A stretch of 64,000 nt of DNA from an uncultured Hormoscilla sp. (GCA_963921275.4 OZ001293.3:6176001-6240000), one strand, 5' to 3'; counted from the first letter of the stretch, positions 21,997 through 59,651 are shown. Program-made: numbers and translations. Notes: a model not told the origin generated them from the letters alone.

Positions 21997-24370
21997 GTTA
22001 AACTAAGCCAGGGTGTTACCACCCCAAGGAGTCTTCAGAACCGGACGATCTGCTTTTCACCTCAGGAGGCTCCTCAACAATGCCACCCAAGTCATGGGTA
22101 CGACTCCTACCACTACCATCTCTGGTCGTCTTCTGATCGTGACAATGCTTATGCAGCAACTGTAGGTTATTATATTGATCCGACCCACCTAATGAAAGTG
22201 GTTTAATATGGTCAACTTCCCACTTGTCACTATTTGTGAACGTTAGTCCTAATTCTCGGCAGTTACCTTTCTGCATCTTCATGAGCTTCGCAACTCGTGT
22301 TCCCACATCTGGGCTCTTACCGAGTCTTGTACTCCAGTAAACGAGCTCACCGTTATATGGGCTTACATCACCTTTTACTTTGACATGTCTTACTATCTCT
22401 ACACTACTGTGCTTCAACAGCTCAACTTCCTTACTTTCATCTTTCGATCTGAACAGCCATTGACCATCCTTGTCTATTGACCAGTCATTCTTGGCCATCC
22501 ATTCTCCAGACTTATTCGGGTGTCGTCTTTTCGCCCATCTCCACAAAACCTTCCACAAGTAATCGTCCAGATCACTATACGTTTCCTTGCTCACTCCTGT
22601 TCTGAAGTAATTAGCCCATCCACGTATCAGAGGATTCAGCTTCATTATCAGCTCCTCCTGAGACTTTCTGTCATCTATCTCTTTCTGATGACTTTCCTTG
22701 TGCTAAAGAACGGATTTCTCACTCGGCTTGATTAGTGTTTTGAATCCTAGGATCTTCCCTTTACACCTTCCAGACTTGTTCTTGACTACCTGATATTGTC
22801 TCACATTGAATCCCAGGAAATCAAATCCCGCGTCTTCTGCGTGTAACCTATGAGCAATCCTAGTCTTCTCAGGCTTAAGTTCAAGTCCTATTCCTCTCAG
22901 CCATTCAGCTATAACCTTCTGCGCCTTCTCCACCACTTCCCGACTTTTATGTATGACTACAAAGTCATGTATCTGACCACAGTCAACTCTGTCTTTTTTC
23001 GTTCAGGCACCAGAGTCATAACTTTTTCCTCTAGTCCATGCAGAGCAACGTTTGCCAGCAATGGTGAAATCACTCCTCCTTGTGGTGTACCTTCATTCGT
23101 TGCACACCAATTCCTCCCATCTATCACACCAGCAGTCAGCCAAGCGCGTATTTGTCTACGAAAGATAGATGAAGTATTCACTTTTGTCAACAGCGCTTCA
23201 TGGCCTATCTTATCGAAGCATTTAGCTATGTCAGCATCAAGAACCCATTTAGCTTTCTTGTTGATCGCTGAGCATATTGCTTCGATTGCATCATGACATC
23301 CTCGACCTGACCTAAATCCATAGGAATTACCTTCTTTCCTTAGCTTCCCATTCTGGTTCTAATGCCTGTTTCAGTAATCCCTGTAGTGCGCGGTCGTACA
23401 TCACCGGTATTCCCAATGGACGTAACTCTTTCCTACCTGGTTTAGGTATCCAAACCCTTCGAGTCGGCTTAACCTTCTTCCAAGTCTTAAGTTGTCCTAC
23501 CAGTTCGAGACGCTCGTTAGGTTTCAGCTCTTTTATACCGTCTACCCCAGCCGTCTTCTTTCCCTGGTTATCTTGTGTTACTCGTCGTACCGCTAGACAG
23601 TTGGCAGACCAAGACTTCACTAATAGCCTCTGGAGTTTGCGAACTTTCCGCTTATTACCTTCCTGAGTCGCTCTGTAAATCCGCTTTTGCAAAAGACTAA
23701 CCGCTCCAATTTTGGCCACGGTAGATCTTTCCATTCATACATCGGCTTTCCCGTGTTCATAACGTTTTCACTGCTACAAGTAGCTTCACATTTGACATCA
23801 TTGTGAGGGCGTCAGCGTATCCATACCTATTACAGGTAGGCTTTTGCTTCTCCACGAAATCCTTCCCGGCTATGACCTGGCATATGTAACCAGATGTTGC
23901 GTCTTTGGTGACTACCAGATGTGATCGACCTCTAGATCTGGAGTACATAACCGGTTTACTTCGTTCCTACAGATGATTGATCATGACCTTAGATGGATTC
24001 TATGTACCGGGTTTATTGTCGGTGCTTGTTAGTCGGCCTACGATCCACTAACGACCTCTATCCTTTCCCTTTTGGGCCAGTGTTTCAGCCTTATTACACT
24101 GGTTGTGTGTGACGACACTGCAAATCTTCGCTTCATGCTCACCATAGTCACTTGCTCGACGTTAACCGATTTAGGCTATCAGTCATTGCGCCTTCTATTC
24201 CCGCTTTACGGATTGATGCCAAGTCGCTACCGTAGGGAATATGCTGTCACTCCTGCACCTGGAGGGGTGGACTTTCACCACCATCATCTGTAAGTTGTCG
24301 GCGACTATCGTCGCCTCTAGCGGTCCCCAAATTGACTTGTGTCAACTTGGGGACACTAAACGAATCGCAC
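21997..24370 (-). mobile_element. Group II intron (IIB, chloroplast-like class) with degraded RT-maturase-HNH ORF
   Basis: 5' GTGCG at 24370; DV/DVI ending AAC at 21997; EBS1 loop CGTAGG pairs with exon end CTTGCG. Confidence 0.92.
22016..23760 (-). pseudogene. ltrA: Intron-encoded RT/maturase/HNH, multiply frameshifted
   Basis: RPLGIP, GTPQGGVISPLLAN, GFDFLGF, GWANYF, HNH motif; YADD disrupted. Confidence 0.92.
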
Positions 24371-25561: not shown

Positions 25562-28185
25562 TATGATGGGAATGGAAAAAGGAAAATTGACAAGGGATAT
25601 AAGCAGTCGCTCATTGAAAATGCATAGGTCGATAGATGATTAGACGATCGGGTTATGGATTAGTTTACAGGATGGTCGCGATCTAACTGGGTTATCCATT
25701 AAATACTTAAATCCGTTCGCGACATATCTTCCCGGGGTGCCGGGCGAAGCATTACGAACGGCTTTTTAGTTTCTAAGAGGCTGGAACTGACTGCTTTCTC
25801 TATGGGACTCGCTATGACTATCTATGCAAGCCTCGGCGTCCTCTTTACTCAAGGGCTTGGAGAAGAGATATCCCTGCCCTTGTTCGCAGTTTAACATCTT
25901 CAAATGTGCCAATTGCTCCGTTGTTTCTATCCCTTCGGCAATTACATCCATACCTAAAGTGTGGGCCAGGGTGACAATAGTTCTGACAATCTCGAAATGC
26001 TCGTCATCAGCATGCATCTGCATCACAAAAGAACGGTCAATTTTTAAGGTGTTCACCGGAAAACGGTGCAAATAACTCAAGGATGAGTAGCCCGTGCCAA
26101 AGTCATCCAAACTTAACTTAATATTCCTGGATCTCAGTTGCAACAGCATGTTTCTGGCATTCTGAGCATTTTCCATCAGCACCGTTTCGGTGATCTCTAG
26201 CTTCACAGCAGGACCAGATAGACCAGTTTCAGCCAGAATCAGGTCTATCTGGGGGATTAAATCCGGTTCTCGTAGCTGTTTGCCAGAAAGATTGACGCTG
26301 ATGGTCAATGGTGAGTGTTGCGGATATTGGATCTGCCAAGCCCGGAGTTGACGACAAGCCTCTCGCAACACCCACTGACCGATGGGTATAATTAACCCGG
26401 TTTCTTCGGCTACGGGAATGAACTTTCCTGGGGAGATAAAGCCTCGTTCCGGATGCTGCTAGCGAATCAATGCCTCGAAACCAGCTAACTTACCAGTTAC
26501 TAGGCAAACGATCTGCTGGTAATAAACTAAAAATTCCTGACGCTCGATCGCCCGTCGCAGATCGGGTTTCCAACTGCAAGCGGGCCACAACTTGTTGATG
26601 CATTTGGGTATCAAACAGGGCATAACGAGCCTTGCCCTGTTTCTTAGCACGATACATAGCCGTGTCAGCATCCCGCAGGATATATTCGGGTTGGTCGTAA
26701 CCTGTCGTACTCAAGGCAATGCCAATGCTAGTATTAGTGAAAACTTCATAACCCTGGAGATAGAAAGGTTCTGCAAGGTGCTTGTTGATCCTCTGGGCCA
26801 GGTCGATCGCCTCAGTTTTAGACTCGATATCTGCAAGCAAAATAGCGAACTCATCTCCTCCCAGTCGGGCGAGAGTATCAGTTGGGAGCATCTTTTGCAG
26901 GCGCTGGGCAAAGGCAATCAGCAATTGGTCTCCCACCATATGTCCGAGACACTATCGTTGACCACATTGAAGTCATCAATATCTAAGAAAAGTACGGCAA
27001 ACAAGTAGTCTCCACCTTGTTGATAACGCTGCAAAGCGATAGCGAGTCGGTTCACAAACAAAGTAAGGGATAGCAGGTTGGTGAGGGAGTCGTAAAAAGC
27101 ATTGTGGCGTAGTTGCTCCTCAGCCCGCAGGCGATCAGTGATATCTTCGGAAATACCGAGTAAATATTCGGGTTGACCGTTGCGATCCTAGAGGGGCACC
27201 TTGACAGTGTGGAGAAACCTGCGGCCCAAACTGTGAAAGTCGATCGGTTCTGCGGGAATATCCTCAGCAGTGCCCCGTGCAAAGGTTTGCAGGTCTTTTT
27301 GACGGAAAAAGTCTGCCTGTTCTTTGGGGAAAAAGTCGTAGTCGGTTTTGCCCAGCACTTGCCTTTGAAGTTAATCAAGAGCATGAGTTCGCAGGTTCTG
27401 TTCAACAGCTTAAATGTGCCAAATTGGTCTTTTTTCCCATCTTTGACAAAAACCGAGACTGGCAGATGATCGATAATCGTTTGCAAAAAGTTGCGAGTCT
27501 GGCGGATTTCTGTTTCGGCCCGCAGGCGATCGCTGATATCCAAAATTTGGGCAATACAATGAAGCGGCTCACCCCGAGCATCTCGGAGAACAGTCACATT
27601 GAGGATGGTATTCACCACTTTGCCATCCTTAGTAAGGTAGCGCTTTTCGATTTGAAAATGGGGTATAACTCCAAGCAACAACTTTTGGGTCATGACTTTG
27701 CTGATGCCTAGATCGTCGTATGGGGGTAATATCTATCCAACTGCGGGTCAGCAGTTCTTCAGCATTGTAGCCAAGAGTGTCGCATAAAGCCTGATTGACG
27801 CGGACGAACTTGCCATCAGGCGTGGCGATCGCCATTCCGATCGGGGCCATCTCAAAGATCAGCCGTAATTGCTCGGAACTTTTTCTTAACGCCTCGGAAG
27901 CTTCCTGGCGATCGGTAATATCGGTTTGGATACCGACAAAGTGGGTAAGATGTCCCTGGCCATTCCGGACTGGGGAAATGTTGAGTTCATTCCAAAAGGG
28001 GGTGCCATCTTTACGATAATTTCTGAGTCTGACATGGAATTCTCTGGCCTCTCGAATGGCCGCTCGCACCTGCTCCAGTTCTGGCTGGTCTCTGTCACCG
28101 GCCTGCAAGAAGCGACAGTTGCGACCGATAGCTTCTGCCGCACTATAGCCTGTGATCCGCTTCATTAGCAGGATTGACATAAATA

Positions 28186-29197
28186 ACCTAAGTTGCGACC
28201 TATTAAAAAAAATATGAATTACCCACTTAGACTTTACAGATATTTGAGATATTTCGTAGCTTTTGATACAAAATTATATTTTTTTTGTGCTAGACGGCGG
28301 GTTGGCTGTTTATAGGTTATAATGTACTAAAATAATAGTTAATTGCTGGGGGATGTAGATGATGGAAGATATGATTACAACAATTTTTGTTCTTTGTGAC
28401 GAGCTACTAAAAGCGTTAAATATAAAAGAAGATCCACAAGTAAAAATGAACAATGCCGAAGTGATGACAGTCGGATTAGTTGCTGCATATTTTTTCGGAG
28501 GACACCACGATCGCTCTTGTCAATTTATGGTCCAACACAAGTATATAAAAAATCTGTTAAGTAAAAGTAGGTTCAATCGTCGATTACACAATATTGACGA
28601 ACCAATTTGGATGTTTTTCTTCCAAGTTATAGCTCAAACATTTAAAGAGCTCAATCCGGGTCAAGAATATATTCTTGATAGTTTCCCGGTGCCAGTATGT
28701 GATAATATTAGGATTGATAGATGCCAAATTTATAACAAGGAAGAATATCGAGGGTATATTGCCAGTAAAAAACGTTATTTTTATGGATTAAGAGTTCATA
28801 TGTTGGTAAACAAAAATGGAAAGCCAATAGAATTTTATCTAGATCCTGGTAGTTATAATGATGTTAAAGTTTTGCAATCTTTTGGCTTTGACTTACCATC
28901 AAATTCAATAGTTTATGGAGATAAAGCTTATAATGATTATCAATTAGAGGATTTACTAAAAGAGTCGTCAAGTATAATGTTAAAACCTTTGCGAAAAAAG
29001 AACTCAAAAAGAAAAGAATATTCTTGTTTTGAATATATACAAAAAGTAACAAAAAAACAAGTTGAAACCTGTTTTAGTCGAATCACAAATTTGTTTCCCA
29101 AGTCAATTCATGCTGTTACATCTAAGGGATTAGAGTTGAAAATAATTCTCTTTATCATAGCTTTTTGTATCCAATTTTTATAGGTCGCAACTTGAGT
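28186..29197 (+). mobile_element. IS982-family element (transposase 28359-29183)
   Basis: IRs ACCTAAGTTGCGACCTAT / ATAGGTCGCAACTTGAGT; target duplication TAAATA; ILDSFP, GDKAY motifs. Confidence 0.92.
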
Positions 29198-30088
29198 TAA
29201 ATAATGGGATTATCTGGGGCCGTGGCGTCGGTGATGATAATGCCGTTGGCATTGTGGGCGATCGCCCGTTCCATTAGGTGCAGGCGTTCGATGGACTGCT
29301 GGTGGGCAACTACTGTTGCCAGCAGCTGGGCGATCGCCTGCAAGAAATTAACCTCATCTGCGGTGAACTGCCGTTTTTTAGGACTGTGGGCACTCAAGAC
29401 ACCAAAGGGTTGTTCCCCGTAGGGAATGATGACGCTGATGCCACTTACCACTCGGTGATTGTGCAGCAGGGGCGTACCGCTGAACCTGGTTTCGACCCGC
29501 AGGTCTTCTACTATTACCGGCTGTAGGGAATGAAGAGTATAACCTGCTTGGGAATTTCTCACCCCTACCAGGCAACTGCCCGCCAGTCCTGGAAGCCAGC
29601 CAACGCCCGATCGCAAGAGAAATGCCTGACCGTTGGGTAACAGTTCCAGCACCTGAGAATACTCCACCTCCAGGGTTTGGGCCACCAGGGCAACAGCTTC
29701 TGACATCAGCAGGTCCAGGTTCGTAGCGGCCAGGGCCATTTGACCCAATTTAGCCACGGCTGCTTGTTGGCGGGCACGAGATTGCAGTTGAGTCTCTGCC
29801 CGCTTGCGGTCTGTTATTTCTTGTTGCAGTTGTCTATTGGCTTCTTCCAATTGGGCTGTCAGATCCGAGATTAGCTGTTCTTGGTTCAATCTGCCCGGAG
29901 TCGGCTTTGCTTGAGAGCGCCTATTGACAAGCTGCGGCCAGTACCAGATTACTACAGAAAGTAAAATCCATCCTACCAGGTATCCCACTTCTACCACGAC
30001 GGTTCGATCGGCTTTGCTGAAAAATGTAGAGACATCTGATATCTGACCTAGCGAGACAAGAGCAATTTTCTCAGGCAAAAAGCTGCAC

Positions 30089-41498: not shown

Positions 41499-42719
<1,221 letters not shown>

Positions 42720-42750: not shown

Positions 42751-43585
<835 letters not shown>

Positions 43586-44541: not shown

Positions 44542-44705
44542 GAAAAAATGCTATAATAGATAGACAATGTTTGTAGTCGGTTTTAACCGACTTTACCTAT
44601 GACGCAGGGGTTTGAACCCTCGGTATATCGTGGGTAGTGCGAATAGCGCTCCCACGATATACCGAAGGCGGGCTACCGGGAAAGCAAGGACAAGCAGGTA
44701 TTGAC

Positions 44706-46141
44706 ATGATAGATTTCAACGAGGTCCGGGCGGAGTTCCAGAGAATTTGGGGTTATGCCGATTTTCGCCCGCCGCAAGGGGAAATTATTAGCAGTATCTT
44801 GGCACAACGGGATGCTTTGATCGTGATGCCAACCGGTGGGGGAAAGTCGATTTGCTTCCAACTCCCAGCTTTGCTACAATATGGAGTGACTCTGGTGGTT
44901 TCTCCCCTGGTGGCCCTGATGGAAAATCAGGTGCAGGAATTACGCCAGCTACATCTGCATGCGGCTTTAATTCATAGTGAGTTGTCCAGCAGAGACAAGA
45001 AACAAACCCTGCAAGCATTAGAAAAACAACAGTTGCGGTTACTTTACCTTTCCCCAGAAACATTGTTGAGTATCCCAGTTTGGGAACGGTTGTCTCAACC
45101 CCAGTTGAAAATTAATGGCTTGATTCTGGATGAAGCTCATTGTCTGGTACAGTGGGGGGAAACTTTTCGTCCCGCTTATCGCCGGTTGGGGGCTGTCCGT
45201 CCCGCTTTGTTAAAGTCGAAACCGCCGGGGACGAAACTCCCGATCGCGGCTTTCACGGCGACGGCGGATCCGGACGCACAGCAGATTATTCGCGAAGTAT
45301 TACAGCTGCGATCGCCCCAACCTTTCTTACTCAACCCTATCGTGCTAACTTAAACTTAAAGGTGCAAATTGTCTGGACTCCCCGGGGACGCCGCCAACAG
45401 TTGTTAAAGTATATCCAAGCTAGACGCAAACAATCTGGTTTAGTCTATGTGAGAACTAGGCGAGACAGCGAGGAACTGGCTGGATGGCTGGGGGAAAGTC
45501 GCTTCCAGACCGCTGCTTACCACGCGGGGTTGAGTCCCGACGAACGCCGTGCCATTGAAAATGCTTGGCAGAGTGGTAAGATTCAGTTTGTTGTCTGTAC
45601 TTGCGCCTTTGGGATGGGGATAAATAAGCCCGATGTCCGCTGAGTGATTCATTTCCACTCGCCTCTGCTATTATCAGAATATGTGCAAGAAGTGGGACGT
45701 GGTGGCAGAGATGGTAAACCGGCTGAAGCCCTCACCCTGATTAGCGAACCTACTGGATGGTTGGACCCAGCAGATAAGCAACGACGGCAGTTTTTTACCG
45801 ATAGAATGCGCCAGCAATATCAAAAGGCTCAGCAATTGGCGAAAAATCTCCCCGTTAAGGGCGATGTCAACTCTGTGAAAGCTGAATTTAAGGATGGCCC
45901 GATCGCCCTTTCCCTTCTCCACAGCAGCGGACAGCTCACATGGCTCGACCCCTTTCACTATAGCATCGATCGCTCGGTAAAAGCACAGCCATCCGACCAA
46001 TCCCGAGCCGTCCAGCTAATGTCACGGTATCTGACAACCCGTGATTGTCGCTGGAAGTTTTTATTAACCGCCTTCGGCTTTACTCCCGCTGCTAATTATC
46101 GCTGCGGTCACTGCGATAACTGTACCAAAACCAAATCTTAA
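44706..46141 (+). pseudogene. recQ: RecQ-family helicase with a frameshift (~45340) and TGA at 45641-45643
   Basis: MPTGGGKS, DEAHC, FGMGINKPDVR*VIHF, QEVGRGGRDG, CGHCDNC. Confidence 0.88.
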
Positions 46142-46619: not shown

Positions 46620-47085
46620 CTACCTGCCTAATTTCCAATCTTCCCCATCTGGCAGTTTACTCACTTTCTCCATGATTATACCGCGTATTGTTTGCCTTGA
46701 ATGTTCGTAAGTCAAATTTAGCAGTTGAGTCGCGGCCTGCACTACTGCTGTCTTATCTACCATCTCTTCGAGTTGAAATGGCGTCACTCGCCCATCCAAA
46801 ACTTCCTCACTCGCTATGGCAATTGCATCAAGAAAAGCCATTTCCATGTAGTCATCCCATTCATTTTGCTTAATATAGTAAGAGGTTTTATCCTCTTTCA
46901 GATTTAGACCTTGGATCTTCAGCACCGAATCTCCGATCGAAGCATACCATAAATTATTCATCCTTTCGGAAATTTTGTTTTTAATTAAAAGCACAAGCAT
47001 TCTGACGAGGAAACTCTCGATATTCTGCAAAATGGCTTTCTTACTCATCCCTTCCAGTTCGTCTACTAACATTAATGCCTCATTA
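46620..47085 (-). pseudogene. DUF29-family protein, 5'-truncated
   Basis: Paralog of 52900-53406; lacks the N-terminal helix. Confidence 0.7.
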
Positions 47086-47455
47086 TACCAGCAATTTGCT
47101 ATAATATCAATACTGCGGTATTAGTGGTATTATTGCCCTTACTCTGTGTATTTATGCTTACTGCCATCGGCCAGCCCCTGAAACCCTCGGTTTTTCGTTG
47201 GCCCGATCGCCTTTTGGGGCCTCTTCGGGAAAACGCCCGACTAGAAGCACAAAATTTTTTTGCTACCTCCATCTGTACGGTTGACAAATTATTTTATTCA
47301 TGTTAGAGCGGTAAATTTATCCGTAAATTGGCTCAAGAACGAATATTAAGAGTATAATATATGGTGCGATTCGTTCTGATGTAAACCAGTAATGGTGAAA
47401 ATCGGGCCTGGTCTTATTTGCCAGGTAACTTTGGTGCCATGAGGGTTAAATTCCC

Positions 47456-48449
47456 GTGCGATGAGTTCCAGCCTAACGTAGTCATATACGGAACTCTGGC
47501 CTAGGAAACTAGGAACTCTGGTAATCATGGGGGTTTAATTCCCCCTCCCCAGGTACAGGGGTAACCGCGTGAGGTGCTGCGAAGTAACATCATCGTGGTG
47601 CCAAGCGAGGACTCAAATGTAGGATAACTGGCAGCCCAAGCCGGTGACTCTGCTAGGAAAGATGTCCATGGCTAGAACAAGCGAACCTATGTAAACCTCG
47701 TTAAACCCAACCAGCGAAATAAGGCTTAATGCGCTGGAACAAAAGTTAATGCAGTTAGTGTTAATTAGGGAATTGGCTAACATTGTACCCAAATAACTGC
47801 CGGGGAAAAGTAGGGGCCTAAAGGCATCGTGAAATGATACCAGGGAACGAAGTAACCTCAGCGAGAGGAACGAAGTAACCCCCGTGGTGCTGTCCTCATT
47901 TGGACAAGTCAGATGTGCGTCCGCGTAGCGTGCGCGCAGCGCATAGCGCATGCCCATGAGGGGAGAGATGGCCCGAGAAGCTAATGCCTAGGCGGTGTCT
48001 GGAGCATGCCTTGGTGTCTGGAGCACACCGAGTCCTTCAGGACAAGAGTGTGCGGAAGACGCCAAAGTCCTTCAGGACAAGAGCATGCGGAAGACGCCGG
48101 TAATGCCTATGGATACGCAGACGCGGGTCGGTGATACTAGTAAACTATTGGTACAAGTAGCTCTAAAATGTCATAAGCCCATTTACAGCGTTAGCGAAAG
48201 CGAGTTGAGGATTGAGGAATGTTTAACTGGTAAAACGGAGTGTTAAATGGTGATACTAAAGGTTATCCGGCAGCTCCACTCACCAACCAGGAAAGGGGCG
48301 GACGTGCAAGTAGTAAGGGACAATGGGAGTAATCCCTAGTAATCCTACCCGTGAAAGGGGCCTAGTACCCAGTAGCCGTGTGCGGTGAAAGTCGCATGCA
48401 CGGTTCCGAAAGGGAGGGTTGTCCCGCGAGGGACAGCTCGACCCCGACT
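47456..48449 (+). mobile_element. Nested ORF-less group II intron, in domain I of the outer intron
   Basis: GTGCG...CCCCGACT; EBS1 GGGAAT pairs with ATTCCC. Confidence 0.88.
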
Positions 48450-48909
48450 TCCGCCCAGATACGGGGCTGACATCGGTTCTCAGTGCTACGAAGTAACATC
48501 ATCGTGGTGCCAAGCGAGGACTCAAATGTAGGATAGCTAGTAGCCAAACTGGCAACTCCGCGCTTATTAGAGGTTCATGGTTAGAGCAGGCAAATCCCTG
48601 TAAGTATCGTTAATACTAACCGGTGTAATGGCTGACTAACACCGGCCTAAAATAGGAAAGCAGGCAGCGCCTTAGCTTTCATATGTGGCTAAGGACGTAT
48701 CCGAAAGAACTGCCGGTATATAGGGGAGACCTAAAAGCCTCGCGAAATGGCATCAAGGAACGAAGTAACCCCCACGTCGCTGTCCCCAGGGACAAGTTAG
48801 ATGTAAAGCGCAAGTAAGTGTGGGTGGGAGGGATGTCCTAAGAAGCCAACGCCCAGGGTAATGCCTGTGGATATGCAGACGTAGGACGGATATGGTAAGA
48901 AGCCTTGGG

Positions 48910-49850
48910 GTGCGAATCGTTTTGGCGTAAGTCTGAAATATGGCGATCGCCGGGCTGGTTAATACCAGCAACTCTGGTCATCATGGGTTCAATTCCCCTT
49001 CCCCCAGGTACGGGGGTGACCGCGTGAGGTGCTGCGGAGTAACATTACCGTGGTGCCTCCCGAGGACAAATGTAGGATAAGGTCTCAGCCCAGAGACCGA
49101 CGCCGCATGGCTGCGCCACGCTGCGCGATCGGAAAGAGGCTCATGGTTAGAGCAAGCGAATCCCTGTAAGCATCGTCATCTTAAACAAGCGAAAAGAGGC
49201 TGACACGCTTGGTGCAAAATGCGCACGCAGTCCGCGTATCAGTGGTTGCACGTCACTGATATCGTACCCGAAATGACTGCCGGTGTATAGGGGAGACCTA
49301 AAAGCCTCGTGAAATGATACCAGGGAACGTTCCGGACAAGAGCGGTGCTGTCCAGATGGACAAGTCAGATGTGCGTCCGCGTAGCGTGCGCGCAGCGCCT
49401 AGCGCATGCCCGCGTGGGGAGGGAGGTCCTAAGAAGCTAATGCCCGGGGTAATGCCTGTGGATATGCAGACGTAGGACGGATATGGTAAAAAGCTCTAGG
49501 AGATAGTAGCCCTCTAAACGTGCTTAACCAGTGGCAACACTAGGTAGTAATGATGGACTGAAATCCTAACCGGGTAAAAAATTTAGAGGCCCCATACGGG
49601 CACCTGTTAGTAAAGAACGGTCATAGTGGTTTTCTAGTTCTCCCCCGTAAACCTTCCGGAGTTAGGTACTCAACTAGTTCATGACTGACCATAAAGGGGC
49701 TATATTTCATAGGGCAAGGGACAACGGGAGTAATCCCTAGTAATCCTACCCGTGACAAGGGTTTACCAACCAGTAGCCGTGTGCGGTGAAAGTCGCTCTT
49801 CAGGTTCCGAATGGGAGGATTGTCCCGCGAGGGACAGCTCGACCCCGACC
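48910..49850 (+). mobile_element. Nested ORF-less group II intron, in the domain IV region of the outer intron
   Basis: GTGCG...CCCCGACC; removal restores AAGCCTTGGG|AGAAACTAGC, similar to AAGCTCTAGGAGATAGTAGC in the inner intron. Confidence 0.85.
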
Positions 49851-50414
49851 AGAAACTAGCCTTAAAAAGTCATAGACTAAGGAGCAATCCTAAAGGATGA
49901 ATGATGGACTAAAATCCTAGCCGGGTAAAAACTCAGAACCCCGAGTAAAAAGTAAATGGGGACCATGTTAGCAAAGAGCGGCTAGTGCGGTTTGCTGGTT
50001 CTCCTCCGCGAACCTTCCGGAGCTAGGTACTAAAACGGTCTGTTGGCTAACCACAAAGGGGCAAAATCTCATGGGGCAAGGGACAACGGGGGTAACCCCT
50101 AGTAATCCTGCTGATGACAAGAGCTTACCAACCAGTAGCCGTGTGCGGTGAAAGTCGCTCTTCAGGTTCCGAAAGGGAGGGTTGGGAAGTGATTCCCAGC
50201 TCGACCCCGACCACAAAGCCTGCGAAAAAGACCAACTTTCTCTCCTCTGAGGGAAGCGCGATCGCCCAGCACAAACCCGATCGCCCCACGGGAGAAGAAA
50301 CCGGGTTTCTACTAAATTTTTATCGTCCCGAGAGGGTGTAAAAGAAACCCGGTTTCTAGCAGACACGCGATCGCCTCAAGCAAGCACCGGTGCAAACCAG
50401 CGGTTTCTGGGCGG

Positions 50415-50506
50415 AAAAAAATTTCCCAAAAGGGTTGACAATGGAATTCGCAGCCATTAAGATGGTAAAAAAGCGGTCGCAGGATTGCCGTACCTGGAAA
50501 ACTTCA
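50415..50506 (+). promoter_or_regulatory. Strong sigma70-type promoter with UP element and boxA-like motif
   Basis: A-tract, TTGACA(50435)-N17-TAAGAT, short hairpin, ACCTGGAAAAC. Confidence 0.55.
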
Positions 50507-50559: not shown

Positions 50560-50781
50560 GTGGAAACCATCGAATTCAAGACTATCCTCCAAAGCGGATC
50601 CGTAACCATTCCCCCCGAATATTCTGCCCAGTGGGAAGGCAAAAATATCCGTGTTATCCTATTGGATGATGAGGGAAACTTAGCCCTACCCATGGAACAA
50701 CCCCCAACACCGTCATTTAAGACCATTTCCCTCTATACACGGGAGTTTAAATTTAACCGAGACTCAGCTAATGCCCGCTAA
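50560..50781 (+). CDS. Small antitoxin-like protein
   Basis: GTG start after GAGG; overlaps the PIN gene start. Confidence 0.65.
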   Translation: METIEFKTILQSGSVTIPPEYSAQWEGKNIRVILLDDEGNLALPMEQPPTPSFKTISLYTREFKFNRDSANAR

Positions 50782-51174
50782 GATTTTCCTCGACACTAAC
50801 ATCATTATCTGCTGCTATTCCCAAGATGGGCCAAATAAACAAGAACGCGCTCTAGCATGCGTTTGATCGGGGACAGGATTAGCACTCAAGTCCTGAATAA
50901 AACAGTCAACACCTTGAGACGGAAGTTTTTACTGAAATATGCTCAGATAGGTGCGGTTGTCGATGAGCTAAAGCAACAGCTTAAAGTCGCAACTGTCTCA
51001 ATAAACACGATTCAGCGCGCCTTAGAGATCTCCGAACGATATAAATATAGTTACTTCGACAGCCTCATTATTGCCAGTTCTTTGGAAGTTGGTTGCGATA
51101 TCCTCTACAGCGAGGACCTACAGGATGGACAAAACATTGATAGCCAACTTACTGTTATTAACCCCTTCCTCTGA
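50771..51174 (+). pseudogene. VapC/PIN toxin, frameshifted near 50860
   Basis: IFLDTNI...; ISTQVL, YFDSLIIA, LYSEDLQ. Confidence 0.82.
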
Positions 51175-51473: not shown

Positions 51474-52584
51474 TTATTGAGCAAACTCCTTTTTCAGATG
51501 TAAAGCAATGCTGGTGGTTTCTGCCTTGTTTCGTCCCGTGGTTTGAATGCACAACCCATAACCAGCATCCGTCCATGTTAGCACGAATTCCACAATTCCG
51601 TCATCTTTAATCCGCCGAATGGCATTCTTCTGTTGGGAATTAAATGGCAGAGAGTCGATCGCTCCCCTCACGTAGGCAGATCCACATAGCTTCTTGGCAA
51701 ATTACTCTAGTTTGTCCTTCCCACGATCGTCTCTGAGTTTGATCTGTTTCTGTTTAGCAGGACTGTCATTCTCAGGAATTATGGACATAATTGCCCTTTC
51801 CTGCTTGGCGAATTGTAGGCGCGATCCCTCATTAAACAGCACCCCCATTGCGGACAGACTCACCAGGGGGATATCGTCTACAACTTCTTCATCAATTAGA
51901 GAGGACCAATATTTATTGTCCGGAGACTCTTCCAGTTCGGACTTTTCCAGAGTTTGTCCGCTTTCGAGTTATTCAAACCAAGAGTAATTATGCAACCAAA
52001 ATCCCAGAGCCAGCGCCACCGGTTGGAGTGGCAATTCAATCACCTCGGAGAACTTCTCAAATAAATAGTATACGGGAATTTTCAGCGCTTGTCCGATCGT
52101 CCCGGCAAAAGATATTTGTGCTTTATAACCCCCGTAGCATTAATTGCTATTGCTTCGGGACCAAAATTCCTCACTTCGGTACCGATCTCACGGACGAGAT
52201 TTTTCAATCCTGTTGCTTAAAGTCTTTGACGCTATCATCTCGCAACCCCGACAATACTCGCATTTCCACCCGATCGAACCCCAGGGGGTTGCGGTTATTT
52301 TCGTAATACAGTTTCAGCAATGCGCCTGTTTTCTTCCCATCTTCCGTATCGGATACCAAAAAGATTAAACGCAGTCGGTTAGCAAGGAATCCCTTTTCGC
52401 AGATCCGCGCAATGGAGTTAATTTCCGCACCGCACAAGCGGTCCGTGTTCGGTTTATCCAGCAGCAGCAAAGACAGTTGATTCCAGTTTTCCCCTTCCCA
52501 TGCTTGCTTGATGGGGTCTTCCTCATTCCTTTTCAGGTTATTCAACAGACTCGTGCCGACGGTACAGATCAGAGTGCTTCTCAT
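51474..52584 (-). pseudogene. CRISPR-associated CARF protein (APE2256 type, possibly Cami1-like CARF-wHTH-RelE)
   Basis: CTVGTS, AEINS, SDT.DG, NATGGYK; frameshift near 52205 and stops near 51970 and 51703. Confidence 0.8.
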
Positions 52585-58193: not shown

Positions 58194-58570
58194 TTAAGAT
58201 TTAAGCTATAGCTAATTGCCAATGGATAATTGATAATATTCCGTAGGTTGGGTTGACGCCAGGAAACCCAAACCGCAGCATCGAGAGAAACCCAAAACCC
58301 GCTGCGTTGGGTTGAGGAACGAAACCCAACCTACAGTACTAATTAAACCTTACCCCGCAATGCTGCTAATTTTGAGCTAATGGACAAGGGTTGATATCCC
58401 AAGGCAAAGGCTTTAGAACTATCTAAAGAAACATCCGGTGGTCTGGGTGCTGCTATTTGGGTGTCTTGTTGGCGGAACAATTGCGACAAGAACTCCCCCC
58501 TCGCAATGACAATGTGCCCAGTATAACATGTCTTGATGTACTATTATATATAGAGGAAAGAGAATTAACC

Positions 58571-59651
58571 ATGTCTAAAGCAGCAGACGATTTACTGAAA
58601 CAAGGAATAGGGCAATATCAGACCGGTGACGTAGCAGCAGCATTACAGTCTTGGCAGCAAGCCCTGACCCTCTATCGGGAAGCAGACGATCGCAAACGAA
58701 CGGGGGCGGCCTTGGGCAATTTGGGGGCGGCCCATGAGGCCCTGGGAGAGCTGCCAGTCGCCCTAGATTACTATCAGCAGCATCTGGCGATCGCCCAGTC
58801 AATCTCGGACTGGCGGGGACAGGGAAATGCTCTGGAAAATATAGCTAATGTCTACCATAGTTTGGGAGAACTGTCAAGGGCAATAGACTATTATCAGCAG
58901 CGGTTGGCGATCGCCCGAGAACAGTCCGACCTTGAGGCATCCGGCAGGATATTGGGGAACCTGAGATTGACATATAAGGAGATGGGAAATGAGCAGGAGG
59001 CGATGGCCTGTTGCCGGGAACAATGGGCGATCGCGCGGCAGAGGTTTTCCGCAAAAAAAACGGGGGACTTTATGGAAATCGCGGAACAGGTAGGTTTAAA
59101 CCCGATGGAAGACTTCGCGGGGGCGGACCTGAGTGGAATCAACCTGTACTATGCTAACCTAGGCTGGGCAGATTTACGGGAAACAAATTTGAGTAATGCC
59201 GACTTTAGATTAGCAGACCTGAACAATGCGAAATTAAGTAAAGCCAATCTGAGCAATGCCAAGTTAAGTAATGCGAATCTGCGGGATGCCGACCTCAGCT
59301 ATGCAAATATGACGGGAGCAGATTTGCGGTTATCAGAACAACCACTCGCTAAACCAGGAAAGGGAAGAAAAGACAGGCGGCAAGGGCTAACGGAAGTAAT
59401 TCCTATTAAGTCTACCTATGAAAAGGGCCTAGTACCCAGTAGCCGGATGCGGTGAAAATCGCAAGTCCGGTTCCGAAAGGGAGGGTCGGGAAGCGATTCC
59501 CGGCTCGACCCCATCCAAGTTGGTGGGAACTAAACTCAAAGGGGCGTTCCTCAAGGGGGCAAATGTGGAAAAAGTGGACTTCAGAGAAACATCAGGTATT
59601 TCTCAGCAGATGAAAATTGACCTGATGGAGCGCGGGGCGATTTGTGAGTAA
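58571..59651 (+). pseudogene. TPR plus pentapeptide-repeat protein interrupted by an intron remnant
   Basis: TPRs and A(D/N)L repeats; C-terminal KLVGTKLKGAFL...ERGAICE* resumes at 59517 in another frame. Confidence 0.8.
59328..59516 (+). mobile_element. 3' remnant (DIV end, DV, DVI) of a group II intron
   Basis: AGCCGGATGCGGTGAAAATCGCAAGTCCGGTTCC...CTCGACCCCATCC; no 5' domains. Confidence 0.85.

Follow-up and report, generated by a model that had tools for sequence, protein, structure and literature searches.

Two ORF-less group II introns nested within a third in an intergenic region of an uncultured Hormoscilla sp.

How do three ribozymes that encode no protein come to lie inside one another, and does anything depend on their being spliced out in order? 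A 64,000-nt stretch from an uncultured Hormoscilla sp. (GCA_963921275.4 OZ001293.3:6176001-6240000; G000:C1:6176001-6240000 in our numbering), which we call the window, raises this question. It carries three GTGCG starts (47364, 47456, and 48910) and three ends made of domains V and VI (DV and DVI; 48449, 49850, and 50212), all at the positions given in an earlier note on this DNA. That note read them as one outer group II intron with one insert in domain I (DI) and one in domain IV (DIV), and folding upholds both the parse and the two domain positions: the outer intron, O (47364-47455 + 48450-48909 + 49851-50212, 914 nt), contains intron A (47456-48449, 994 nt) in DI and intron B (48910-49850, 941 nt) in DIV. 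The best explanation, to which we give a probability of about 0.72, is an intergenic stack of three IIB-type introns without open reading frames (ORFs), built by separate retromobility events via a reverse transcriptase (RT) borrowed from RT-bearing introns at other genomic sites; its splicing is likely not needed by any host gene. The parts of the nest are listed below in window coordinates, with exon-binding and intron-binding sites abbreviated as EBS and IBS.

47351-47363 (+): target site of O; IBS2 AGTATA at 47351-47356 makes 5/6 pairs, and IBS1 TATATG at 47358-47363 makes 5 Watson-Crick pairs and 1 G-U pair
47364-47455 (+): O segment 1; GTGCG 5' end, and 5' DI as far as the middle of the 3' strand of hairpin IA
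47456-48449 (+): intron A; ORF-less, DV intact, ends GACT; member of an IA-targeting lineage, closest full copy 1 nt different
47768-47773 (+): EBS1 of A (GGGAAT), pairing 6/6 with ATTCCC at 47450-47455; EBS2 AAACCC at 47703-47708; gamma A 47966 pairs with the final T48449
48372-48407 (+): DV of A; AGC triad, AU bulge, GAAA loop, 14/14 consensus pairs; branch A at 48441
48450-48909 (+): O segment 2; the rest of DI, DII, DIII, and the initial 22 nt of DIV
48680-48685 (+): EBS1 of O (CATATG); EBS2 AATACT at 48612-48617; gamma G 48831 pairs with the final C50212
48910-49850 (+): intron B; ORF-less, DV mispaired, ends GACC; represented genome-wide by 8 full copies and 2 partial ones
49247-49252 (+): EBS1 of B (TGCACG), making 3 Watson-Crick pairs and 1 G-U pair with CTTGGG at 48904-48909; EBS2 TCTTAA at 49179-49184; gamma G 49422 pairs with the final C49850
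49773-49808 (+): DV of B; AGC triad present, TCTTCA at 49797-49802 instead of ATGCAC, UC bulge, 11/14 pairs; branch A at 49842
49851-50212 (+): O segment 3; the rest of DIV, a mispaired DV, and DVI; ends GACC
50135-50170 (+): DV of O; AGC triad present, the same TCTTCA replacement as in B, at 50159-50164, UC bulge, 11/14 pairs; branch A at 50204

Excision of both inserts rebuilds an intron that differs from a solo sibling at G000:C1:2750557-2751471(-) by only 5 substitutions and 1 gap (99.3% identity), bearing out the earlier note's claim of collinearity with sibling introns and yielding the solo copy that it had proposed looking for. The nest thus consists of complete introns inserted precisely, and on the same strand, within a complete intron. 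The folding that the note had also proposed gives six domains for each of O, A, and B in a consensus of 47 family representatives with covariation counted per helix; among 6 sequences, 92/213 pairs show double-sided changes (O was folded via its alignment row and its 99.3% solo sibling). In the consensus folds, A sits within the 3' strand of hairpin IA, which replaces a placement at the IA/IB junction, and B sits 22 nt into the basal stem of DIV. The units are ORF-less, as claimed: no ORF inside the nest is longer than 132 aa, and a Pfam search of the two that reach at least 100 aa returned no match.

All three introns have the GUGYG 5' end (as GTGCG), a bulged A in DVI (48441, 49842, and 50204), a gamma-gamma' pair, and recognition by EBS1-IBS1, EBS2-IBS2, and EBS3-IBS3, which is good for O and A and weak for B at its site. 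Their 3' ends are less conventional. We considered ends one base earlier (the canonical ...GAC, AY; the Rfam stop is 48448), which would leave one surplus base per junction relative to the solo sibling, and rejected them because of the empty sites and of gamma and EBS3 covariation. Genome-wide, 68 introns have an exact empty site, and for 68/68 the only end that fits lies 9 nt from the branch A. Across the lineage, the gamma base in J2/3 covaries with the last intron base (A:T 109/110, G:C 161/168; scorable in 278/373 introns), and EBS3 covaries with the +1 base (U:A at 190/245 and A:T at 24/34 unique sites; 40 introns unscored). The terminal dinucleotides, CU in A and CC in O and B, consequently depart from the AY that passages of a review (PMC4424553) state as the group II 3' end; the ORF-less lineage mostly ends CY, with some families ending AU. 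The epsilon' bulge is AAGC in A and B and AGGC in O, where the IIB rule is AARC (PMC12350094). The trio is an atypical IIB-type lineage rather than a set of textbook group IIB members. With Rfam model RF00029, only the DV-DVI of A was recognised (48371-48448, 47.9 bits), those of O and B being missed even at E<=1; intron counts based on Rfam overlook such introns, two out of three in this nest.

The EBS1 and EBS2 of intron A pair with the exon at 6/6 and 5/6 positions and its EBS3 reads the +1 T. The A lineage has 14 5' ends, of which 13 occupy the IA site in a sister intron and the other a genomic mimic of that site. The IA site is present in nearly all family members and filled in few. Hosts with an A at -14, O included, are filled in 7/10 cases as against 6/345 otherwise (p 1.5e-9), or 7/10 as against 6/80 when we restrict the count to +1 T hosts and exclude two young large families (p 2e-5); both p values are overstated, because related hosts are not independent. 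The two largest families likewise have sites enriched in A-15 and A-14, the bases that the TeI4c and EcI5 proteins recognise (PMC2882425), so protein recognition may underlie the host preference. A is a member of a specialist lineage aimed at the IA hairpin that favours hosts with an A at -14. We found no filled IA site in any of the 4 congeners (genome completeness 93-97%). A further double-loaded ORF-less host lies at G000:C1:6622023-6626001(+), with a member of the A lineage inserted at IA and an RT-bearing one in DIV.

B fits its site far less well. Its 8 full copies lie at unrelated sites, and 7 of them are within 8 differences of each other. The earlier note had remarked on the poor fit of its EBS1 (TGCACG) to CTTGGG in O, and this pairing is indeed the poorest among the 8 full copies. 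The GTAAGA that serves as the IBS2 motif is 3 nt from IBS1 in O, where 2 is usual, and is therefore one base out of register compared with most B sites. The note had offered ectopic insertion or drift as the cause; the first stands, and drift is excluded, because the empty sibling of O already reads CTTGGG. At least 340 positions in the genome fit the B rules as well as the site in O does.

At 48984, read contigs carry two more G than the assembly, shared wholly or partly by most other B copies, and this is probably a homopolymer error; the two extra G would restore the IA stem of B.

The same O::A'::B architecture recurs, decayed, at a second locus, G000:C1:4515387-4513093(-). The order there is O 1-92; a member of the A lineage, from a different subfamily, at the IA junction that A occupies in the nest; a deletion running into B 343-941; O 553-561; an insertion sequence (IS) at CTAG; and O 558-585. 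O 553-585 is thus split by the IS, and the decay came by deletion, IS, and an antisense intron. The second O site differs from the first and matches EBS1 perfectly (the two sites read TATATG and CATATG), and the flanks of the two O::B copies diverge exactly at the first intron base. Between the loci, the O pieces show 2 substitutions in 125 nt and B shows 0 in 596 nt (p 0.03), which leans toward later copying of B. Two independent B hits on the same junction are unlikely, since so many positions suit B equally well, and a single origin of O::B is the likelier. As for the second copy, gene conversion is a plausible source, at somewhat under even odds; composite retrohoming is a tentative candidate, and independent hits are a weaker one still. 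The A-type inserts at the two loci are most simply independent. A repeat of 1,020 nt, present in at least 59 near-identical copies and frequently inserted into introns, lies at G000:C1:4512834-4511820 and at about 28184-29200 of the window.

O and B differ from A in their DV. The minimum free energy is -14.3 for the canonical DV of A and -7.2 for the non-canonical DVs of O and B. The AGC triad and AY bulge are metal ligands and the DV helix is continuous in the review's account (PMC4424553, in part), and catalysis by O and B is predicted to be impaired. The variant occurs in 45/373 copies of the lineage (28 unclassified), including all 8 full B copies and the commonest sequence of a 16-copy family (family 2). 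Its uniformity within families suggests that young families moved while carrying it: O and B have a broken DV helix yet are members of near-identical multicopy families that apparently spread recently. On a DI-DIII tree of 32/47 representatives (15 were dropped when the split motif was not found), the variant is scattered, with at least 5 changes, and a single clade is rejected (approximately unbiased test, p-AU 5e-5); it is therefore recurrent or exchanged by recombination. An assembly artefact is disfavoured, as a congener (G004) carries the variant in 2 copies of another family. The GTDB collection has it at 2 loci, which we do not count as extra evidence, and contigs contain no alternative letters at the variant positions, which is no proof of the sequence.

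We also asked where introns of each DV class lie relative to genes. Among 314 top-level introns, the sense:antisense counts in long ORFs are 65:38 for intact, 9:4 for mispaired, and 6:6 for other DVs, which is uninformative on the need for splicing; 4 of the 9 sense mispaired introns share one IS site. The 11 sense-strand hosts of DV-aberrant introns that we sampled are an IS transposase, kinases, regulators, a transporter, and similar genes, none clearly essential. Possible explanations of the variant are tolerance with the help of a protein, a DV supplied in trans, and conversion after insertion.

Other parts of the lineage are altered too. Clustered multi-base replacements recur in DV-DVI and in 5' ends (GA to TC, a GAAA loop to TCCA, GCTCTT motifs). 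In family 3, which has 14 copies (e.g. G000:C1:4184504-4185439), the representative lacks the 3' end of DIV and has a rewritten 5' strand of DV; the family is nonetheless multicopy, and 5 of its copies lie on the sense strand of long ORFs. Inserted micro-repeats of 25-33 nt, with 22-28 exact genome copies, occur across the lineage, through a mutational process that is unexplained. Those in the nest are:

47917-47942 (no strand assigned): dispersed 26-nt micro-repeat, located in the loop of DII in A; 28 exact copies genome-wide, with a relative in DII of B
48067-48099 and 49107-49131: other micro-repeats, with 22 and 27 copies

Does a gene need the nest to be spliced? The earlier note had supposed that ordered splicing was required, and this is not supported: the locus is intergenic and interrupts no gene, so that likely none needs it. 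Open stretches across the rejoined site reach at most 69 aa (stop to stop), and with the DVs of O and B mispaired, full resolution is doubtful in any case. The divergent upstream ORF lacks a Pfam match. Downstream, the small ORF and the PIN gene have a promoter-like match of their own at 50435-50463 (a weak signal, with 4 such matches found against 3.3 expected). A consensus scan, the only kind made, found no plus-strand promoter-like match upstream in 47000-47363. A search of congeners for the orthologous empty site matched only part of the upstream ORF, in 4/5 genomes. Both outer junctions are spanned by public short-read contigs, which come from 3 runs of a single study and extend 28 letters into the intron at each junction (against a bar of 31). 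In one contig, 47455 is joined to 48450, as at the empty A site of the sibling. Data from a run of a different study include a loose end at 49859, which matches the second locus.

The nest belongs to a genome crowded with such introns. The 6.88-Mb contig, which has 4,754 GCGATCGC sites (a cyanobacterial marker according to published abstracts), gave 511 5' ends and 503 3' ends in a bracket parse, leaving 74 starts and 66 ends unpaired and 437 paired introns that cover 6.8% of the contig. Of these, 373 belong to the O/A/B lineage, none RT-bearing, in 83 clusters (the largest of 145 and 72), and 64 to a second, mostly RT-bearing lineage, L2. The 380 top-level elements include 29 double, 11 triple, and 2 quadruple nests. 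Three triples are all-ORF-less, and this nest alone has all its members on one strand. The earlier note had called such a nest unusual; that does not survive the 11 triples and 2 quadruples on the same chromosome, nor the published ORF-less-in-ORF-less cases and nests of up to five. The lineage is present in all 4 congeners, and among 26 other genomes 6 gave matches, all weak and short.

Nor is the nest likely to be protein-free, as the note had it, given the trans-acting RTs at hand: the genome has 93 RVT_1 matches and 33 long RT ORFs, of which 14 run to an L2 3' end and 0 directly to an end of the O/A/B lineage. One of the RT proteins has as its best PDB match 6me0, a 'maturase reverse transcriptase' (E 1e-113), which we take to be the Thermosynechococcus TeI4h protein. 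A closely related ORF-containing parent, as for TeI3-type introns, is absent from this genome, where the RT ORF lineage has a different DV. The O/A/B lineage does share with TeI3-type introns the lack of an ORF and the multiple near-identical copies at EBS-matched sites. From copy number and the A-14/A-15 bias, we infer that its members are mobilised in trans by a driver protein.

Taken together, these observations suggest the following history. O would have retrohomed into an EBS-matched intergenic site; B would then have landed ectopically in DIV of O, probably once, with the O::B combination later copied to a second O by gene conversion or as cargo of a moving O; and A would have retrohomed into DI, its EBS1, EBS2, and EBS3 reading the widespread IA hairpin. 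The sites are observed, and the events are our reconstruction. Divergence from the nearest copy (1 nt for A, 1 nt for B, 6 nt for O) makes the inner introns look younger than the outer one. If the locus is transcribed, A is predicted to leave first, and cleanly, and B and O to splice poorly or only with help, since B pairs weakly with its exon and both have a mispaired DV. The nest is probably without function for the cell and is a record of intron traffic. Four points weigh against this history. The RT-bearing lineage is distant at the RNA level, sharing with the O/A/B lineage only short patches of 70-83% similarity, and the protein that serves the nest is a candidate only. A broken DV ought to block mobility, and a poorly splicing intron conflicts with the spread seen, with B in 8 full copies, 7 of them close to one another, and O at 3 sites. 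That B is less diverged than the O pieces mildly opposes O and B moving as a unit. Read support, finally, is confined to the two outer junctions.

Other explanations fit part of the evidence. The nest could be a live composite retroelement, in which O retrohomes with B as its DIV cargo (about 1.85 kb, smaller than an RT-bearing intron) and A-type introns attack each new copy. The same B junction in two O copies at unrelated sites, both matching EBS1 of O, with flanks that diverge at the first intron base, is what this predicts, the O site is a poor one for B, and composite mobility is raised as a possibility in the parts of PMC2882425 that we cite; the lower divergence of B, however, is as expected of gene conversion, B breaks the basal DIV stem, which by analogy would be a protein-binding region, and the DV of O is mispaired. 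We consider a live composite unlikely, if deserving of attention. Slightly less probable, in our view, is an inert junk pile, with O and B catalytically dead and the DV lesion spread to all copies by recombination after insertion. The free energies of the three DVs, the scatter of the lesion over the DI-DIII tree (as module swapping predicts), and the lack of clearly essential genes among the sampled sense-strand hosts are in keeping with it. Against it, canonical DV donors are several-fold commoner, so that conversion should presumably repair the lesion rather than fix it, and yet every full B copy and the commonest family 2 sequence retain it.

A functional three-step splicing unit, in which removal of A and B precedes that of O and either the cell or the element relies on this order, seems to us improbable. 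A does split hairpin IA, so O likely folds fully only once A is gone; for A, IBS1 and IBS3 are perfect and the DV is intact; and sequential splicing of a twintron has been demonstrated in Trichodesmium (PMC4649490). There is, however, no host ORF and no promoter-like match in the upstream scan, B pairs poorly, the DVs of O and B are mispaired, and the second copy is decayed, through deletion, IS, and antisense intron. Least probable by a wide measure is a collapsed-repeat misassembly, which the earlier note had named as a way for its reading to fail. The genome is repeat-rich, contigs reach only the outer junctions, and the two G at 48984 show that small assembly errors exist. But both excisions restore the sibling to the base, the junctions follow EBS/IBS rules and recur elsewhere with different partners, the contigs at the outer junctions fit, the loose end at 49859 matches the second locus, and the DV variant is also present in the congener. 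The exact excisions and rule-abiding junctions make misassembly unlikely. We favour the stack built by separate retromobility events.

A more speculative idea concerns the families with a mispaired DV, among them O, B, and family 2, which together have at least 45 copies: they might be mobile ribozymes that have lost a functional catalytic domain of their own and borrow a DV in trans from the hundreds of intact introns of the same cell. We regard this as a long shot. If true, bacteria would offer a living intermediate on the way to a shared, U6-like catalytic RNA, and nests would set an intact DV (that of A) beside defective partners and move as composites.

Several known systems resemble this one, in the portions of the sources on which our comparison draws. 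In Thermosynechococcus elongatus, ORF-less TeI3 introns (family F3) lie in TeI4a-e, and TeI3i lies in TeI3h (Mohr, Ghanem & Lambowitz 2010, PMC2882425). Common to both are cyanobacterial IIB introns, ORF-less within ORF-less, with a specialised family on a conserved site of sister introns, younger inner copies, the A-14/A-15 preference, and copies moved by 'driver' proteins in trans (here probable rather than observed). In Thermosynechococcus, however, the site is in DIV, between start codons, with one insert per host, whereas here hairpin IA of DI is used and there are two inserts; the helpers there are close kin, whereas the RT-bearing lineage here is distantly related; and CY ends, two mispaired DVs out of three, and a load of about 437 paired introns versus 28 set the present genome apart. 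Methanosarcina acetivorans has nested introns, up to five (Dai & Zimmerly 2003, via the review PMC4424553), which likewise are nests from repeated homing with no coding exons around and host genes unaffected; they are up to five deep through homing into intron ORFs, whereas the two inserts here lie side by side, in the ribozyme domains of a host without an ORF. The Trichodesmium erythraeum T.e.I7/I8 twintron (Pfreundt & Hess 2015, PMC4649490) is also cyanobacterial with an inner intron early in its host, but both of its introns encode proteins, a conserved gene is interrupted, and splicing was shown in vivo; here the introns are ORF-less and intergenic and splicing is predicted only. Arthrospira platensis (Miura et al. 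2022, PMC8919778) is another cyanobacterium with a very high group II load; the maximum in that survey, whose pipeline misses the outer partners of twintrons, is 101 introns, and this genome has about four times more. Bacterial ORF-less introns are described as rare in the review (PMC4424553, in part).

Twintrons with both members ORF-less (Thermosynechococcus) and nests up to five deep (Methanosarcina) are therefore already known; what is added here is the IA-targeting lineage, the ectopic B, the second O::A'::B locus, the CY ends, and mispaired DVs in multicopy families. A literature search for Hormoscilla with group II introns returned no paper, and literature listings held nothing matching CY ends, an IA-targeting lineage, or a mispaired mobile DV; supplements lay outside that search, and an earlier description is possible. 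As a 2.85-kb fragment, the nest is a compact test system that combines an intact ribozyme with two whose DV fails textbook rules, has targets in DI and DIV, and has all three CY ends fixed by gamma-gamma' covariation. With it one could test whether nested introns move as a unit, what mobile introns need of their DV, and whether a distant maturase can serve a whole ORF-less lineage, questions that bear on how self-contained introns came to depend on shared splicing parts.

Further traces of intron traffic lie in the window and elsewhere on the contig. At 41750-42584 and 42751-43585 of the window, separated by 167 nt, lie two near-identical members of the 72-copy family, both ORF-less; the first appears to interrupt a small gene in sense. 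At 59336-59515 is a 3' fragment of the 145-copy family (DIV end, DV, and DVI, without a 5' part) within an ORF of pentapeptide-repeat-like sequence (58457-59455). The same family forms five self-nested twintrons, all at one DIV position (G000:C1:1325884, 4741854, 5180205, 6029576, and 6410258). Exact head-to-tail arrays of 2-3 intron copies occur at G000:C1:5447656-5450268(+), 824934-826675(-), and 524521-526114(-), and at L035:230-2045; in these, the last base is joined to the first G with no EBS match, and they may derive from circles or unequal crossing over.

Around the nest, the window contains fragments of a broken RT gene at 22016-23340 (-), with RVT_1 matches at C1:6198802-6199340; a RecQ-like helicase gene, recognised by eye, at 44637-46141, split by frameshifts or stops and either a pseudogene or affected by assembly errors; the small ORF and PIN-domain gene at 50563-51174 (+), which resemble a toxin-antitoxin pair; and a Cas_APE2256 (CARF-type) fragment at 52204-52584 (-).

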